Virus record (IMG/VR): IMGVR_UViG_3300015214_000031
Span: 10,694-74,693 of that record
Length of the DNA stretch: 64,000 nucleotides
Reading direction: 5' to 3' (one strand)
Origin: a virus
Taxonomy: Duplodnaviria; Caudoviricetes
Position numbers and translations under genes: made by a program. Below the pieces are notes generated by a model. It was given only the letters and a program-made list of their open reading frames with translations, was not told the origin of the DNA and did not search any database. Shown here piece by piece: positions 1,748 to 10,890 of the stretch. Numbering within the stretch: position 1 is the first letter of the stretch; each line of letters opens with the position of its first letter.

Positions 1748-4402
1748 GTGTTTTATTTTCCAGAAGAAAACAAGAGTGAGGAAAAACCAAAAAAGAATAT
1801 AAAAGAATATAATTGTCAGACCTGTGGATTATATAAAAAAGCCCATACACCTAAAATGCAAGTTACCATTGGAAAAGATTACAATGGGTTGGTTATTGTT
1901 TCTGATTATCCAGGAAAAAATGAAGATGAAAAAGGAATACCATTCGTAGGTAAATCAGGAAACCTCCTACGAACAATTGCATTAAAAAACAAAATCAATC
2001 TTGCTAAGAAATCAGCCGTTACTTATGCACTATCCTGTAAACCAGACAGTAAGAAGCCTTCTGAGACATTATTCAAATGTTGTAAATCTTTACTTCATAA
2101 AAGAATAAAACAACTAAAACCCAAACTGATTATTTGTTTAGGTGAACACGCCGCCAATGCAATTATTCGATCAAGAAAAAAACAGGCAATATCAAAACTC
2201 AGAGGGAGATTGATTCCTAACTATGAGTTTGATTGCCTTGTATATATTTCCTTCAGTCCTTCTGAATTATTTTATAAAGATTCAGAGGATAGATTTGATA
2301 AAACCTTGGAAACAAGTTTCCGATGGGATATGGAAAAAATCTTCAAACTTTGGAATACAAAACTTTACAAAAGAAAGGTAGTAAAGAAAACCCTTGAGAA
2401 AAGAAAAATACTAGAAGGAATTCAATTAAAGGAAATAAAAACAAAATCAGAACTGGATAAGGTTATTGAAGAACTATATAAGAATGGATCATTTGCTTTT
2501 GACTATGAAACAACTAATTTAAAACCATATGATGATGACTTTCAAATCTACTCTTGTCAATTTGGAATAAAAGATAAAGCATGGGGGGTATACTTTCCAC
2601 ATTTTAAAGATATCCAATATTTAAAATCAACTATCTACAGGATATTAAGTGACCCTGAAATCAAAAAGTATATCCAGCATGACAAATTTGAAGAAGTTTG
2701 TTCCAGAAGATTATTAGAAAAACCAGGAGAAAGAATACTCCAAAATTCATTCTGTACTATGGTTGCTAATCATATTGTTGAAGCAAAACAAAAATGCTCC
2801 AACTTGAATTTCATGAACTTGGTAAGATTTGGAATTCCTGAGTATGATGAAAAAACACATAACTTTTTAAAACCAAAATCTAAAACGGATAAAGTAAATA
2901 GAATTCATTTGGTAAAACCTGATGATTTGCTTCTTTATGGGAACCTTGATGTAATAACAACTTATAACCAAGGAATTGTTTTAGATAATAATCTTCTTAA
3001 TGAAGGAAAATACAGATGGTGTTATGAATTAGTTCATGATGCCCATTTGAATTTTGCAGATGTTGAAGAAGAGGGATTTCCAGTTAATAAAAAGAAACTA
3101 GATGAATTAGATAAATACATAACTGATTTGATGGACGATCTTATTGAACAAATAGGCAAAATTCCAGAAGTAAGAAGATTTTTAAAGAAAATAGTTAAGG
3201 AGGGCTTCAAAGAAAAGAAAGATGGTCAGGGAGGGTTACTTGGATCATTTTTAAGAAGTCCTAAAGAACTCCAAAAATTTCTTTATGAAGAATTAAAACT
3301 TACTCCTATAAAACAGACTAAAACAGGAAACTCAACCGATCAGGATGTAATTACAGAACATGCAGAAAAAGATAGTGTTTTATTCTGTAAATTACTTGCT
3401 AATCACAGAAAACTTTTTAAGGCAAAAAGCTCATACATTGATAATATAAGAAAAAATTTGAATGATGATGGAAAAGTTCACGGGTCAATAATGGTATTAA
3501 ATGAGACGTTTAGAAGCTCAATTGCAGATCCTCCATTACAAACAGTGCCCAAGCATGGAAGTATTATTGAAAATGTTCCCTGGAAAATCATTAGGGAAAT
3601 ATTTGAATTAGAGGATACTGAATATCTTCTTGGTCAAGTTGATATGTCAGGATGGGAATTGACTGTAGGAGCAGCAGTATCGGGAGATAAGGCTTTCATC
3701 GAAGATGTAAACAATATTGATATCCATGCTTATTGGGCAAAAAGATTATTTGGATTTGATAAAACACTTGAAGAAATAAAGAAACTTTATAAACCATATA
3801 GGCAAATATCTAAAAATGTTTTTGTATTTGCTGGAATGTATGGAGCAATATTTACAAGTATTGCAAGAGACATGAGAACATATGAAGAATATCTTGAATA
3901 TTGTAAAAAGATTTACAGAAAATCAAAAACAAATATGGAATTTATGGATTGGGTTATTCCTTTTTCAGAAAATCATGTTGAAAATTGTCAGAAAGATTTC
4001 TATGGAAAGTATAAAAGACTTCGTGAATGGCAGGATGAAGAAGTTACTCTTTATTATCAAAATAAATATGTAGAACTTCCGATGGGATTTAGAAGACATT
4101 ATCCATTAACAAGAAACGAAATAATTAATACTCCTATTCAGGGAACTAGCTTTTTGATTATTCTTGATTCATTCAATAAAGTCATGACTGAACTTAAAAA
4201 ACGTAAAATGAAATCAAAAGTTATTTTGGAAACACATGATGATATGACATTCAAAGTCTATAAACCTGAAACTTTGGATTTAATTGAAATGGTAGATAAT
4301 ATAATCTTGCACCCACCGTTTGATTTTATGAAGGATTTGAATGTAAAATCAGAGTGGACATTTGGAAGATCATTAAACAAAATGAAAGAAGTTCAATTTT
4401 AA
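1748..4402 (+). CDS. polA: Family A DNA polymerase with N-terminal uracil-DNA-glycosylase-like domain and 3'-5' exonuclease (SPO1 gp31-like architecture)
   Basis: GTG start with SD GAAAGGAG. UDG family-4-like CQTC...DYPGKNEDEKGIPFVGKSGNLL. Exo I FDYETT, Exo III YGNLD. Polymerase motifs RSSIADPPLQTVP, A (QVDMSGWEL), B (RQISKNVFVFAGMYG), C (ETHDD). Confidence 0.93.
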   Translation: MFYFPEENKSEEKPKKNIKEYNCQTCGLYKKAHTPKMQVTIGKDYNGLVIVSDYPGKNEDEKGIPFVGKSGNLLRTIALKNKINLAKKSAVTYALSCKPDSKKPSETLFKCCKSLLHKRIKQLKPKLIICLGEHAANAIIRSRKKQAISKLRGRLIPNYEFDCLVYISFSPSELFYKDSEDRFDKTLETSFRWDMEKIFKLWNTKLYKRKVVKKTLEKRKILEGIQLKEIKTKSELDKVIEELYKNGSFAFDYETTNLKPYDDDFQIYSCQFGIKDKAWGVYFPHFKDIQYLKSTIYRILSDPEIKKYIQHDKFEEVCSRRLLEKPGERILQNSFCTMVANHIVEAKQKCSNLNFMNLVRFGIPEYDEKTHNFLKPKSKTDKVNRIHLVKPDDLLLYGNLDVITTYNQGIVLDNNLLNEGKYRWCYELVHDAHLNFADVEEEGFPVNKKKLDELDKYITDLMDDLIEQIGKIPEVRRFLKKIVKEGFKEKKDGQGGLLGSFLRSPKELQKFLYEELKLTPIKQTKTGNSTDQDVITEHAEKDSVLFCKLLANHRKLFKAKSSYIDNIRKNLNDDGKVHGSIMVLNETFRSSIADPPLQTVPKHGSIIENVPWKIIREIFELEDTEYLLGQVDMSGWELTVGAAVSGDKAFIEDVNNIDIHAYWAKRLFGFDKTLEEIKKLYKPYRQISKNVFVFAGMYGAIFTSIARDMRTYEEYLEYCKKIYRKSKTNMEFMDWVIPFSENHVENCQKDFYGKYKRLREWQDEEVTLYYQNKYVELPMGFRRHYPLTRNEIINTPIQGTSFLIILDSFNKVMTELKKRKMKSKVILETHDDMTFKVYKPETLDLIEMVDNIILHPPFDFMKDLNVKSEWTFGRSLNKMKEVQF

Positions 4403-4415
4403 AGGAGGAATTATT

Positions 4416-4628
4416 ATGGTATTGGTAAATGATAGAGCAAAAAGAGAATATATGGAAGCTATTCAGTCTACATTAAATAAAATTTATGAAAGAGGGGGAA
4501 TGAAAACCAGAATCAAAATAAATGAAGAGAATGGTTTAACTATTGATACAAATCCAGAGGAAAAAGATGAAGCTATTCCAATCATGTTTAAAGTCATGGA
4601 AGAATTTGGATTGAAAGCAAATGGATGA
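4416..4628 (+). CDS. Hypothetical protein
   Basis: SD GGAGG upstream; overlaps the next start. Confidence 0.6.
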   Translation: MVLVNDRAKREYMEAIQSTLNKIYERGGMKTRIKINEENGLTIDTNPEEKDEAIPIMFKVMEEFGLKANG

Positions 4629-5043
4629 AAAAATATTTGTATTTAAAATTCAAGGGAAAGAATATGCCATTTTAGAAATGACCAACGAGGTTTCCATACA
4701 AATACTATCTCTTATAGAGGAAATAAAAAAATCTACAAGTTCTTTAGATGTTTATCTGAAATCGTTGGAAATAATTAAAATGGTTGTATTAAAAATTGAA
4801 AAGGATAATCTTCCACCAAGTTTTTCAATGTTTTCAAATAAAAATATACTTTTAAATATTAATGAACAAGAGCTATTAAAGTGGAGTTCTAAATTAACTA
4901 TCAAAACTGTTCAAATGATTGTTCAACTTGCTTTAGGAAATGAGTTAGAGGAAAACAAAGAATTGGATCTGCTAATATTAGATAAAGAAAGTGATTTCAA
5001 AAGAGATAAAGAAAGTGATTTCAAAAGAAGGTTACTAATATGA
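4621..5043 (+). CDS. Hypothetical protein ending KRRLLI
   Basis: 140-aa ORF; ATGA overlap with the next gene. Confidence 0.6.
   Translation: MDEKIFVFKIQGKEYAILEMTNEVSIQILSLIEEIKKSTSSLDVYLKSLEIIKMVVLKIEKDNLPPSFSMFSNKNILLNINEQELLKWSSKLTIKTVQMIVQLALGNELEENKELDLLILDKESDFKRDKESDFKRRLLI
4981..5028 (+). repeat. Exact 24-bp tandem duplication (DKESDFKR x2)
   Basis: GATAAAGAAAGTGATTTCAAAAGA at 4981-5004 and 5005-5028. Confidence 0.95.
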
Positions 5044-5471
5044 TAGAAGTGATGTTAAGTGAAAATGGGATACATTTTGATTTAATTGGAATTACTAATG
5101 GATATGAAATGAAGTATGAATACCCACAATCTTATTGCACAATTTTTAGTTATGCACCAAAACAATTAATCTTTTGCCTTTATATTTCAAATAATCTTTA
5201 TATAGCAATAAAAGATAAATTGCTTAATTGTTATAATAAGATTATACAACTTAAATTTAGAAGTAATTACTATGAAGGTTTTATTAAAATAATTACAATG
5301 GAAGTACATAATGAAGTCTTTTATTGTGACTGTATTTTAGACAATGCTAAAGAAATTGATAATAAAGATTCTGAGTTATATTTTGGAAATGTAACAGATT
5401 TCAAAATGGACACAAAGAAAGAGAAACCAAAAAAGGAGGAAAAAGTATACAAAAAAAGATTGCTAATATAA
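5040..5471 (+). CDS. Hypothetical protein ending KKRLLI
   Basis: 143-aa ORF coupled to the previous gene. Confidence 0.6.
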   Translation: MIEVMLSENGIHFDLIGITNGYEMKYEYPQSYCTIFSYAPKQLIFCLYISNNLYIAIKDKLLNCYNKIIQLKFRSNYYEGFIKIITMEVHNEVFYCDCILDNAKEIDNKDSELYFGNVTDFKMDTKKEKPKKEEKVYKKRLLI

Positions 5472-5551: not shown

Positions 5552-6508
5552 ATGGATGTTACAAAGTATCTACGAGCAGGATATCCAATTATCCTCATTG
5601 AAACAATGGAAGTCAAAAGAGCAGTACAGTCTATCATTACATCACCATTCACTATCAATAATAATGGAGAACAAGTAGAAATCAATCCTAAGCTCTACAA
5701 ATGGAATATCTATGATGGTATCTATGGAGAGGAAAACTTTCCTGATATACAAGAACCATTGGGAGCAATTCAAAAAGCTGTTGAGGATTTCAATATCTCT
5801 GTTCTTGTTCTTGAAAACTTTGATTACTTCATTCAACCTGAAAATGAGCTTGCTTTCCCAATATCACAAAGAATCCTTAATGATTTTCAAAAACTGAAAT
5901 CCAATAATGTTTTGCTTTGTATTGTAGGTACAGATCATAAATGTTTGTCCTGCTTGGATAAAGTAATTACAGTATTGGATTTTGATCTTCCTAAAAAGGA
6001 AGAGTTCAGGCAAAAAGCAAAGGAGATGGCAGAGGAAAGAAGTATTGATTACAAAGAGGATACTGCTGATGCTTGTTCTGGATTGGGATTAGAAGAAGGT
6101 GAAAATGCTCTAGCTCTTTCCATTATTGAAAATGATGGTGTAATGGATAAAAGCACTGTAATGAGAATGAAAAGAGAAATGATTAGAAAAACAGGCTTTA
6201 TGGATTTTATGCAACCTGAACCACTGGAAAATATAGGAGGACTTGAAAACGCCATTGAATATATTAATCTAAGAAAAATGGCATGGTCTACACCAGGATT
6301 TCCAAAATTGAATTCTGTATTCCTTATCGGAGTAACAGGATGCGGTAAAACTTTATTTTCCAAAGTCCTCTCTTCCATATTTGATTTTCAATTAATTCTT
6401 TGGGATGTAAACGGATGCAAGGGATCACTTGTAGGTGAAACAGAGAAAAATATGAGGGTATCTACAAAGACAATTGATGCATTTGGTCCATGTATAATTC
6501 TCGTGGAT
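5552..6508 (+). CDS. Ycf46/SpoVK-like AAA+ ATPase, exon 1 (spliced product about 502 aa)
   Basis: N-terminal YLRAGYPIILIET typical of Ycf46-like ATPases. Walker A GVTGCGKT. Ends in the first half of Walker B (CIILVD), where the intron begins. Confidence 0.85.
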
Positions 6509-6818
6509 TAAGATAAAACTTTGTTCACGTTAAACTCTTCTAATTGCTGGAAACTCCTTAGAGCCTGATAAACTACAACATAATCTGAAAAGATAATTGT
6601 GAATGTATAAAAATTATCAGGATTGGACAATCAGCAGCCAAGCACCTAAGATCATTTGATTATGGTGAAGGTTCAGAGATCATCCCAAAAGGGAGTAGAC
6701 TTCAAGTGAAGTCGAAATGGAGAGCAATTGAATACATTGTATTCAATTGAAGATATGATCCGATCTTACTAGAAATAGTAAGAGGAATAACGGAAACGGT
6801 TATTCCGTAACATAGATG
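6509..6818 (+). ncRNA. Group I self-splicing intron (IA-like, no ORF), 310 nt
   Basis: P1 CGUGGAU/GUUCACG with the U.G pair at the 5' splice site. P/Q/R/S elements AATTGCTGGAAAC, AATCAGCAGC, GTTCAGAGATCA, AAGATATGATCC. P3 CTCTTC/GGAGAG. P7 GATCA/TGATC. P9 TCTTACTA-GAAA-TAGTAAGA. Terminal G at 6818. Removal restores LVD|EIEK in frame. Confidence 0.92.
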
Positions 6819-7370
6819 GAAATTGAAAAAATATTTTCTGGTGCTTCTGGAAATGTTCAAGATACAAGTGGGGTAAGTCAGGGAATTCTTGCTCATTGGT
6901 TAACTTGGATGAACGAAACTGAAGGAAAAACGGATAGAATCATTGTAGTAACTGCTAACAGTCTCACTGGAATACCTCCTGAGTTTATTGGAAGATTCGA
7001 TACTGTTTTCTTTGTTGGATTTCCCAATAACCAAGAAAAAAAGCAGATCATTGAAATTATGAATAAACGATATGGGAGTACACTACCCACAAACAATGAA
7101 TTTGTAAATAGCTTGGATAGATGGACCGGAAGAGAGATTGAAAGATTGGCTAGGGAATCTCTTTTTTATAAAATAGAGGATGCAATCAAATATATTCCTC
7201 TTGTAAAAAATACAAAAGAAAAAGAAATTAGAGAAATGGAGAAATTTGCTACTCAAGTAAGACATGCAAGTAAACCAGATGAAAAAAAGGAGGGAAAAAG
7301 GTCAATATTAACTGATTCAGATAAAGAGAAATTCAAGCAAAAACTCAAGATTAAAAAGAAGGAGGATTAA
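6819..7370 (+). CDS. AAA+ ATPase, exon 2
   Basis: Begins EIEK (second half of Walker B). VVTANSLTGIPPEFIGRFD (sensor I/arginine finger); WTGREIE. Confidence 0.85.
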   Translation, partial: EIEKIFSGASGNVQDTSGVSQGILAHWLTWMNETEGKTDRIIVVTANSLTGIPPEFIGRFDTVFFVGFPNNQEKKQIIEIMNKRYGSTLPTNNEFVNSLDRWTGREIERLARESLFYKIEDAIKYIPLVKNTKEKEIREMEKFATQVRHASKPDEKKEGKRSILTDSDKEKFKQKLKIKKKED

Positions 7371-7774: not shown

Positions 7775-8200
7775 ATGTCCCATATAGTTGAAATGGATAT
7801 TGAGATTAAAGATTTAGAGTGTTTGAAGACTGCTTGTGATGAGCTTGGATTTACCTTCATTGAAGGACAAACAGAATATAAGTGGTTCGGTCAGTGGGTG
7901 GGTGATTCTCCAATGCCTGATGGATTAACTGTTGAAGATTTAGGAAAATGTGACCATGCTATTCAAATACCGGGGTGTGATTATGAAGTTGGAGTGGTTA
8001 AAAAGAAAAAAGGAGTTTATACACTTCAATACGATTATTGGAACTCAGGAGGATTGGAAAAGAAAATAGGAACCAATGCAGGACCAATTAAACAAGAATA
8101 TGCAGCACAGGTAGCAATTAAAGAGGCAAAAAGAAAAGGATATTTAGTGAATAAAACAAAAGATAAAAACAAAATAAAAATAAGGATTACTGTGCCATAA
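7775..8200 (+). CDS. DUF1257/Ycf35-like protein
   Basis: MSHIVEMDIEIKDLECLKTACDELG...YD.W......G......QEYA.....EAKRKGY pattern; lies downstream of a Ycf46-like ATPase. Confidence 0.7.
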   Translation: MSHIVEMDIEIKDLECLKTACDELGFTFIEGQTEYKWFGQWVGDSPMPDGLTVEDLGKCDHAIQIPGCDYEVGVVKKKKGVYTLQYDYWNSGGLEKKIGTNAGPIKQEYAAQVAIKEAKRKGYLVNKTKDKNKIKIRITVP

Positions 8201-8379
8201 TGACAACCAAAGAAATCATAGAGGAACGAATTAATGAAACAAAGGACACGATCTCCAACTTTGAGAAACTAATGGAAAAATACCCAAATGATTTTGTATT
8301 TCAAGAATTACTAAATAGATTAAAACAAACATTGATTCTTTTAGAAATGGAAAAGGAAAAGTATGACAAAAATAATTGA
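8200..8379 (+). CDS. Small helical hypothetical protein (59 aa, below the track cutoff)
   Basis: MTTKEIIEERINETKDTISNFEKLMEKYPNDFVFQELLNRLKQTLILLEMEKEKYDKNN; overlaps both neighbours. Confidence 0.6.
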   Translation: MTTKEIIEERINETKDTISNFEKLMEKYPNDFVFQELLNRLKQTLILLEMEKEKYDKNN

Positions 8380-8566
8380 TGTGATAATTGATGAAAATGG
8401 GGAAGTAAAAATTGAAACCGATGGATTTACTGGAAAATCATGTATTGAAGAAAGTCAATTCATAAAAGACGTAATGGGAGTAGAAAAAGCAAGGCATTTG
8501 AAACCTGTATATTTTTCTACTGAAAAAAATAAAACAAAAAAGAAACACCTTAATATTTGTGGGTAA
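8363..8566 (+). CDS. DUF2997-like protein
   Basis: IDVIIDENGEVKIETDGFTGKSC...KPVYF pattern, co-occurring with DUF1257-like and Ycf46-like genes. Confidence 0.75.
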   Translation: MTKIIDVIIDENGEVKIETDGFTGKSCIEESQFIKDVMGVEKARHLKPVYFSTEKNKTKKKHLNICG

Positions 8567-10365: not shown

Positions 10366-10797
10366 ATGAAACCAAAACTAAAAATCAAGGATGACTATGA
10401 TGATTTTGATCCTGATGAAGCATTGATTATTGACAAAAAGAACTTGGATGAAGAAAATAGATTTCAAGCAAAATTAATGGCTAAATATTCCAGAATATTT
10501 GGAAAAAAGGTAAAAGAAAGATACAATGCTGAATTGAATCTGGACATTGTTAAAGATCAATTAGGAGATGATGTAAAAAAGAATCCTAAAAAATGGGGAA
10601 TAAAGAAAGGAGAAAGAATAACAGAAGCATTGATTTCAAGAGTTATTGTTCGGTCTGAGAGATATCAACAAGCACATAAACGATATGCTAAAGCCTATTC
10701 AGAATATAAAGAATGGGAAGGGTTATTGAAAGCCTGTGAACAACGTGCTTGGTCTTTAAAGTCGTTAGAAAATCTTTGGGAGAAAAACTATTATTAA
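10366..10797 (+). CDS. UvsY-like recombination mediator
   Basis: IDKKNLDEE..FQ...ITEALI...Y......A..L.KACEQR...L..L....YY helical pattern; precedes SSB- and RecA-like genes. Confidence 0.5.
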   Translation: MKPKLKIKDDYDDFDPDEALIIDKKNLDEENRFQAKLMAKYSRIFGKKVKERYNAELNLDIVKDQLGDDVKKNPKKWGIKKGERITEALISRVIVRSERYQQAHKRYAKAYSEYKEWEGLLKACEQRAWSLKSLENLWEKNYY

Positions 10798-10804
10798 TTA
10801 ACAT

Positions 10805-10890
10805 GGGGGCATGGTGGAACTGGCATACACAACGGTTTTAAGCACCGTTGCCTTAGTGGATTGAGGGATCGATTCCCTCTGCCCCCACCA
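10805..10890 (+). tRNA. trnL: tRNA-Leu (anticodon UAA), class II with variable arm, CCA encoded
   Basis: Acceptor GGGGGCA/TGCCCCC + A73 + CCA. D arm GTGGAACTGGCATACAC. Anticodon stem ACGGT/ACCGT with loop TTTAAGC. T stem GAGGG/CCCTC with loop ATCGATT. Confidence 0.9.

Follow-up and report, generated by a model that had tools for sequence, protein, structure and literature searches.

Group I introns of phages typically interrupt genes for polymerases, ribonucleotide reductases and terminases (PMC3984707). A survey of the Bastillevirinae has added other target genes and has noted that covariance models under-represent some intron groups; the same source summarises a model of phage–phage competition for introns that carry HNH endonucleases (PMC11878797). 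[quoted passage not shown] We analysed a 64,000-nucleotide stretch of phage DNA (the window; positions 10,694 to 74,693 of the IMG/VR record IMGVR_UViG_3300015214_000031), in which positions 6509-6818 hold a complete group I intron of 310 nt without an ORF. The intron, the two exons and the downstream genes described below all lie on the plus strand. The RNA family of the element, its structure with covariation, a junction set by homology, relatives at the same site and a patchy distribution on the ATPase tree were established by computation.

The intron shares with those of T4 (td, nrdB and nrdD), Twort (orf142) and SPO1/SP82 (DNA polymerase), all of the phage IA type, the family RF00028 and the hairpins P7.1 and P7.2, which separate P7 from the 3' strand of P3. 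With these introns it further shares GNRA loops on P9 and P9.1, the U.G pair in P1, the omega-G, an early in-frame stop and insertion into a conserved phage gene at a catalytic motif. It differs from them in having neither P2 nor an ORF, in reading GAUCA/UGAUC in P7 and not GACUA/UAGUC, and in its host gene, which encodes a Ycf46-like AAA+ ATPase and is none of the nucleotide-metabolism, polymerase, lysin, terminase or structural genes. For the intron core (6531-6726), 241 GenBank phage records gave matches of 70-80% identity, among them phages of Staphylococcus, Bacillus, Lactococcus and Vibrio and the PhiPA3 intron region. The closest of these DNA matches are unannotated; one lies within the gene for a major capsid protein, and others are in RNA polymerase genes of jumbo phages and elsewhere. 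The element type, a selfish group I intron, is already known, and the host gene is what is new relative to the published lists. A literature search of incomplete coverage returned no phage ATPase of the Ycf46-like or AAA+ kind with a group I intron, which is weak evidence of novelty. The first-pass annotation of the window had called the host gene unusual; this is true by comparison with the targets named in reviews (PMC3984707), but not within IMG/VR, where the ATPase genes of two further phages are interrupted by an intron at this position.

Detection of the intron and of its same-site relatives

The Infernal search with the Rfam family Intron_gpI (RF00028), which the first-pass annotation had suggested as a check, gave 82.1 bits (E 2e-21) against a gathering score of 50 bits when positions 6400-6920 were searched alone, with the full model (1-253) spanning 6480-6782. 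The same single Intron_gpI match was recovered when the entire 74,693-base virus record was searched. Whole-window Rfam scans, at the gathering threshold and at E <= 0.01, returned tRNA only and no Intron_gpI. Since the short stretch and the whole record both gave the match at 82 bits, the misses in the whole-window scans reflect a filter effect and not absence. The match needed the 521-base stretch or the record-wide search, and cmscan with the long query was blind to it. For AT-rich phage DNA, a long query without an Rfam match is therefore not evidence of absence, and as two standard Infernal scans of the whole window failed to show an intron of 82 bits, counts of such introns in AT-rich phage metagenomes are probably too low. 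The covariance model put P1 on an exon hairpin and ended at 6782, in P9; the ends of the intron at 6509 and 6818 were set by the P1 and P10 pairings and by protein homology, and not by the model. The minimum free energy (MFE) fold had an energy of -89.3 kcal/mol (z = -4.95 relative to shuffled sequences). The identical 319-aa product of the first exon is on record from three contigs, one of them of 101 kb, which speaks against a single faulty assembly as the source of the interruption. Judged from sequence, 6509-6818 is very probably a functional group I intron of the phage IA type that splices itself.

With a single exon-1 protein as query no viral relatives were found, whereas an alignment query succeeded: a profile of 18 intron-less homologues led to 21 IMG/VR loci. 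Two of the 21 are split at the same point as the window gene, between the D and E codons of the Walker B motif, and both come from one sample. The first, L010 (IMGVR_UViG_3300025012_000049, a 96.3-kb record, 98% complete), has an ORF-less intron of 297 nt at 3952-4248 (Rfam 89.2 bits). The second, L011 (IMGVR_UViG_3300025012_000067, a 74.9-kb record), has an intron of 935 nt at 3955-4889 (48.8 bits) with a 195-aa ORF (4265-4852) in the P8 loop. The ORF encodes an HNH endonuclease (PF01844, 31 bits with a cut-off of 21.4; PHROG HNH families, E 8e-12), and its 3' end, about the last 15 codons, runs through P8', J8/7, P7' and P9 of the ribozyme. Two zinc-ribbon-like motifs, C-x2-C-x9-11-GLC-x2-CY, flank the HNH core of this protein. 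The introns of L010 and L011 resemble the window intron in the identical insertion point, in 75% intron identity and in the same set of helices. They differ from it in a canonical P7, in the absence of P6b and in their ATPases, which are about 45% identical to that of the window and belong to another clade, and L011 differs also in its endonuclease gene.

Structure and covariation of the intron

For the analysis of covariation the three same-site introns were aligned after removal of the L011 ORF, and a hand-drawn structure was scored. Compensatory changes, in which both sides had changed and were still paired, were found in 30 of the 88 pairs, and 6 more pairs had changed by way of a wobble; a non-canonical combination occurred in only 6. 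RNAalifold independently recovered P1, P3-P6, P7.1, P7.2, P8, P9 and P9.1. Every element of the group I core that the first-pass annotation had read from the letters was found again at its position.

The 5' strand of P1 is formed by the last seven bases of exon 1 (CGUGGAU, 6502-6508) and pairs in the MFE fold with GUUCACG (6523-6529), with a U6508.G6523 wobble at the 5' splice site. Three of its seven pairs are compensated among the three introns, and the 3' strand covaries with the exons. The internal guide sequence (6517-6529) consists of this P1 part and of a P10 part, AACUUU (6517-6522), which pairs with GAAAUU at the start of exon 2 (6819-6824). The exon strands of P1 read CGUGGAU in the window and GAUCGAU and ACUGGAU in the two relatives, and each is matched by its own guide. 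In P10 the exon sequences GAAAUU, GAGGUG and GAGAUU face the guides AACUUU, AACCUU and AAUCUU, which track the exon differences; 5/6 positions pair in the window, 6/6 in L011 and 5/6 in L010, with compensated changes. We take guides tuned in this way to differing host exons as an argument that selection maintains splicing in each copy. The exon hairpin that the covariance model took for P1, GUCCAUG/CGUGGAU (6486-6508), was rejected, as it would place the splice site inside exon 1, includes two pairs that are non-canonical and is missing from both L010 and L011. This unconserved hairpin, in which the last seven bases of exon 1 are paired in competition with P1, is probably fortuitous.

The intron opens with an in-frame UAA stop, and no plus-strand ORF of 40 aa or more was found within 6509-6818. 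P2 is absent between P1 and P3. In the RNAalifold consensus of the three introns, P3 (6535-6540 with 6719-6724) is followed by a P4-P5-P5a/b/c domain (6545-6636) and by P6/P6a/P6b (6637-6672). The former comprises P4 (6545-6550 with 6631-6636), P5 (6555-6557 with 6625-6627), P5a (6564-6571 with 6614-6621; 5 of 8 pairs compensated) and P5c (6583-6594; 4 of 4 compensated) with a GAAA loop at 6587-6590. The latter comprises P6 (6637-6639 with 6670-6672), P6a (6643-6646 with 6664-6667) and the P6b hairpin (6650-6661). J6/7 and the 5' strand of P7 read UCA-G-A(bulge)-GAUCA (6673-6682), and in P7 the stretch G-A(bulge)-GAUCA (6676-6682) pairs with UGAUCC (6756-6761); the G-C pair of this helix is expected to bind guanosine. 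The two signature hairpins of subgroup IA follow, P7.1 (6683-6694), seen in the MFE fold and in the consensus, and P7.2 (6698-6713), with two compensated pairs. P8 is an 11-bp hairpin closed by a 3-nt loop (6725-6749), again in the three-intron consensus, and is joined by J8/7 (6750-6755) to the 3' strand of P7. P9 (6765-6782) has a GAAA loop, as has P9.1 (6784-6806), which also contains a bulged purine. A 12-nt tail with the omega-G at its last position (6818) precedes GAA, and 32 nt of P9.1 and the tail are identical in L010.

The remark of the first-pass annotation that P7 reads GAUCA/UGAUC proved correct. Compared with GACUA/UAGUC in L010 and L011, the two middle pairs are exchanged, both in a compensated manner, and the bulged A and the G-binding G-C pair are unaltered. 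A 24-nt P4-P5 motif of the window intron was found in at least 118 IMG/VR stretches, in 89 of which the 5' strand of P7 was recognisable; it read GACUA in 80 of these 89 and GAUCA, with a matching UGAUC, in two (L059 and L073). By this comparison the P7 of the window is a rare but recurrent compensated variant that is predicted to keep the fold. P7.1 and P7.2 are placed as in subgroup IA, whereas the P7 sequence typical of the subgroup, GACUA/UAGUC, is replaced in the window intron; from its architecture we assign the intron provisionally to a phage IA2-like subgroup. At four other loci (L064, L133, L130 and L134) two or three introns of this core family lie within 1-2 kb, with three in L064 at 4502-5444, which suggests multiply interrupted genes.

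The splice junction and the interrupted ATPase

Exon 1 (5552-6508, 319 codons) encodes an N-domain and the Walker A motif GVTGCGKT and ends in CIILVD with the Walker B Asp. Exon 2 (6819-7370, 183 codons and a stop) starts with EIEK, which contains the Walker B Glu, and continues with sensor 1, a GRFD arginine region and a C-terminal lid. Homologues of the exon-1 protein are 36-49% identical to it. On the Pfam AAA profile (PF00004) exon 1 covers positions 1-64 (32.4 bits) and exon 2 positions 65-130 (20.3 bits, which for exon 2 scored alone is just below the cut-off of 21.2), and on PHROG 8638 they cover positions 24-371 and 372-546, so that the exons abut exactly on two independent profiles. 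When 6508 is joined to 6819, an open frame of 502 aa with ILVD^EIEK results (^ marks the junction), and the spliced Walker B motif aligns without gaps to 26 homologues (for example VLVDEIEK and ILIDEIEK). GAT^GAA is the only junction at which the 5' site follows a U, the 3' site follows a G and D and E are adjacent. The same junction and a product of about 502 aa had been proposed by the first-pass annotation, and both agree with the gap-free alignment and with the two abutting profiles. Comparison with intron-less alleles, also proposed there, found D and E adjacent in all 96 of them.

The tail reads AUAG^AUG^GAA, with two Gs that are both in frame and both preceded by a purine-rich stretch. 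Splicing at G6815 instead of G6818 would give ...ILVD-M-EIEK..., a protein of 503 aa with an extra residue within the Walker B motif, at a place where neither the 26 aligned homologues nor the 96 intron-less alleles have a gap between D and E. Moreover, P10 pairs the guide with GAAAUU starting from 6819, and in L010 and L011 the homologous G is the only candidate. We regard use of G6815 as extremely unlikely and prefer G6818, on protein homology, as the predicted 3' splice site.

The predicted product is a classic-clade AAA+ (Ycf46-like) ATPase, for which a search with the family profile gave the D2 domains of the VCP/Cdc48 type as the nearest solved structures (E 1e-43). Downstream of the ATPase gene lie genes for DUF1257 (7775-8200; PF06868, 26.2 bits) and DUF2997 (8363-8566; PF11211, 36.1 bits), both above the cut-off, and an ATPase followed by these two constitutes a Ycf46-like module. 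The ATPase family is large, as at least 540 relatives were confirmed among the first 600 metagenome candidates. The best 80 metagenome loci were all intron-less, although the ranking favours continuous matches and the number thus has little bearing on intron frequency. Homologues in GenBank phages are only distant (for example Corndog gp96 and Rhizobium phage L338C, 24-32% identity). Just past the ATPase/DUF module the window contains a single tRNA-Leu(UAA), whose variable arm is long (10805-10890), and upstream of the window, in the early region of the same record, a gene for a pyrimidine-dimer DNA glycosylase (PF03013) lies beside a gene with a NADAR domain (PF08719; L227, 7116-8047).

The steps that we propose for the window intron are those of the standard group I splicing pathway. 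In the pre-mRNA the last seven bases of exon 1 and the internal guide would form P1 with its U6508.G6523 pair, and an exogenous guanosine, held by the G-C pair of P7, would attack after U6508. The guide would then hold exon 2 by P10 while the omega-G at 6818 occupies the G site, and ligation as GAU^GAA would restore the Walker B Asp-Glu of the 502-aa ATPase. As the intron starts with an in-frame UAA, unspliced RNA would yield only the 319-aa fragment. The earlier claim that splicing gates ATPase production holds in this trivial sense, but we found no evidence of regulation. All three introns have an in-frame stop within 0-7 codons of their 5' splice site, which would suit a regulatory intron whose splicing efficiency (set by the GTP level, Mg2+ or ribosomes stopping at UAA) times or limits ATPase synthesis; early in-frame stops are, however, a general feature of phage introns. 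Furthermore, 96 of the 99 fetched alleles have no intron, so the module works without one. Although the idea of phage introns as a 'molecular on-switch' has been discussed (PMC11878797), we consider such a role very unlikely here.

ORF calling divides the gene into 5552-6511 (319 aa, ending in CIILVD and a stop) and 6816-7370 (184 aa, starting M-EIEK); the final three bases of the intron are an in-frame ATG. These calls could be taken at face value if the ribozyme were dead and the gene truly split, its Walker A fragment and its 184-aa fragment either assembling non-covalently or being the remains of a pseudogene. Several observations make this highly improbable. No Shine-Dalgarno sequence precedes 6816, and the ATG is not conserved, being TTG in L010 and AAG in L011. 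The ribozyme core, the U.G pair, the omega-G and the G-binding pair are all intact, and the complementarity of P1 and P10 to the exons of each host implies selection for splicing. Both exons, in addition, retain all residues that are invariant in the family. The gene should accordingly be annotated as one 502-aa ATPase, whereas public protein collections and gene callers carry the 319-aa and 184-aa fragments.

Distribution, mobility and the ATPase gene as a target

In a maximum likelihood tree of 27 ATPases the window protein grouped with three intron-less homologues (P0007-P0009; support 100/98), and L010 and L011 fell in a separate clade (100/100) among intron-less alleles and an intein-bearing one. 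Between the window and L010/L011 the exons share 56% of their nucleotides and 45% of their amino acids, and the introns are 75% identical; the higher identity of the introns is partly expected from the constraints on a ribozyme and is no proof of recent transfer. A search for co-conversion tracts showed that close to the junction the exon identity between the window and L011 rises to 70%, compared with 56% overall, but this stretch is in any case the best-conserved motif. Among the 96 intron-less alleles no DNA of the region is more conserved than the insertion site, GAT^GAAATYGAAAAA, which reads GAT^GAAATTGAAAAA in an intron-less allele of the L002 type. The existence of an HNH-bearing member, the patchy tree, the intron identity and the conserved site together fit a spread by homing into this stretch of the phage ATPase gene, with the endonuclease gene later lost, or absent, although the patchy tree could also stem from repeated precise loss.

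The absence of a homing endonuclease from the window, noted in the first-pass annotation, was borne out. No HNH, GIY-YIG, LAGLIDADG or VSR domain was detected by Pfam among the 66 further ORFs of the window (one of the lists holding the best 25 families, down to E 8e-5), and none of these families was found among the 10 ORFs of the upstream 10.7 kb. A tblastn search of the 74.7-kb record with the L011 HNH protein or the intein gave a best E of 0.087 and no remnant of the L011 HNH gene. These negative results cover 74.7 kb of a record estimated by CheckV to be about 69% complete. The earlier suggestion that the intron is either stranded or mobilised in trans can be sharpened through L011, with its HNH gene in P8 at the same site: the window intron appears to belong, as a member devoid of a homing endonuclease, to a mobile family that targets conserved Walker B DNA. 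As the copy in the window has no endonuclease gene it would be unable to move by itself, and we propose that it persists because it splices.

Collaborative homing of ORF-less introns with free-standing endonucleases has been described (PMC3984707), and mobility in trans would be compatible with the main explanation, differing from it only in the present-day spread of this copy. A free-standing endonuclease, or one from a co-infecting phage of the L011 type, would cut the intron-less Walker B sequence, and the ORF-less intron would be copied during repair. The occurrence of the HNH-bearing same-site intron in the same sample as the ORF-less L010 and the patchy distribution on the ATPase tree both point in this direction, and a free-standing endonuclease could sit in the unsequenced third of the genome. 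Set against this, the sequenced 74.7 kb hold no endonuclease family and the flanks of the window allele differ from those of L011, and we consider present-day mobility of this copy in trans unlikely.

The Walker B intron is one of two kinds of element found in this ATPase family. Three homologues (P0001, P0003 and L012, the last at L012:1405-3726) contain an HNH intein of about 285 aa (PF14890 and PF13392) within the Walker A motif, which reads G-x-P-G-C...HN^(C/T/S)GKS, and in no fetched allele did intron and intein occur together. The window intron is like the inteins of ATPases in being a selfish element in an ATP-site motif, and unlike them in being an RNA intron, at Walker B, and not an element that splices as protein. 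In the record that contains L012 (G003, IMGVR_UViG_3300031965_000030) a 70-bit group I intron splits a family A DNA polymerase at the motif ...SSTNPNF^..QNFPK (L024:1501-1865).

These elements can be compared with the HNH introns known from phage competition, namely that of the PhiPA3 RNA polymerase gene, directed against PhiKZ, and that of SPO1 with I-HmuI; L011 resembles them in its HNH ORF, the 3' end of which overlaps the ribozyme core. The window copy differs from them in having no endonuclease and would be at most a protected (immune) allele, not an aggressor. It is conceivable, though rather unlikely, that the Ycf46-like ATPase gene is a contested locus at which Walker B introns, with or without HNH, and Walker A HNH inteins serve as weapons and immunity alleles between co-infecting relatives, the ORF-less intron of the window being kept as a resistance allele that destroys the cleavage site. 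If this were so, a phage of the L011 type or one bearing the intein would cut the essential ATPase gene of rivals that have no intron and so inactivate it, in the way that PhiPA3 acts on PhiKZ.

With the predicted endonuclease-less member of a mobile intron family described here, the phage Ycf46-like AAA+ ATPase is added to the genes colonised by group I introns, from the published lists of which it is absent. The presence of inteins at Walker A and of introns at Walker B is indirect evidence that this ATPase is conserved in, and important for, these phages.
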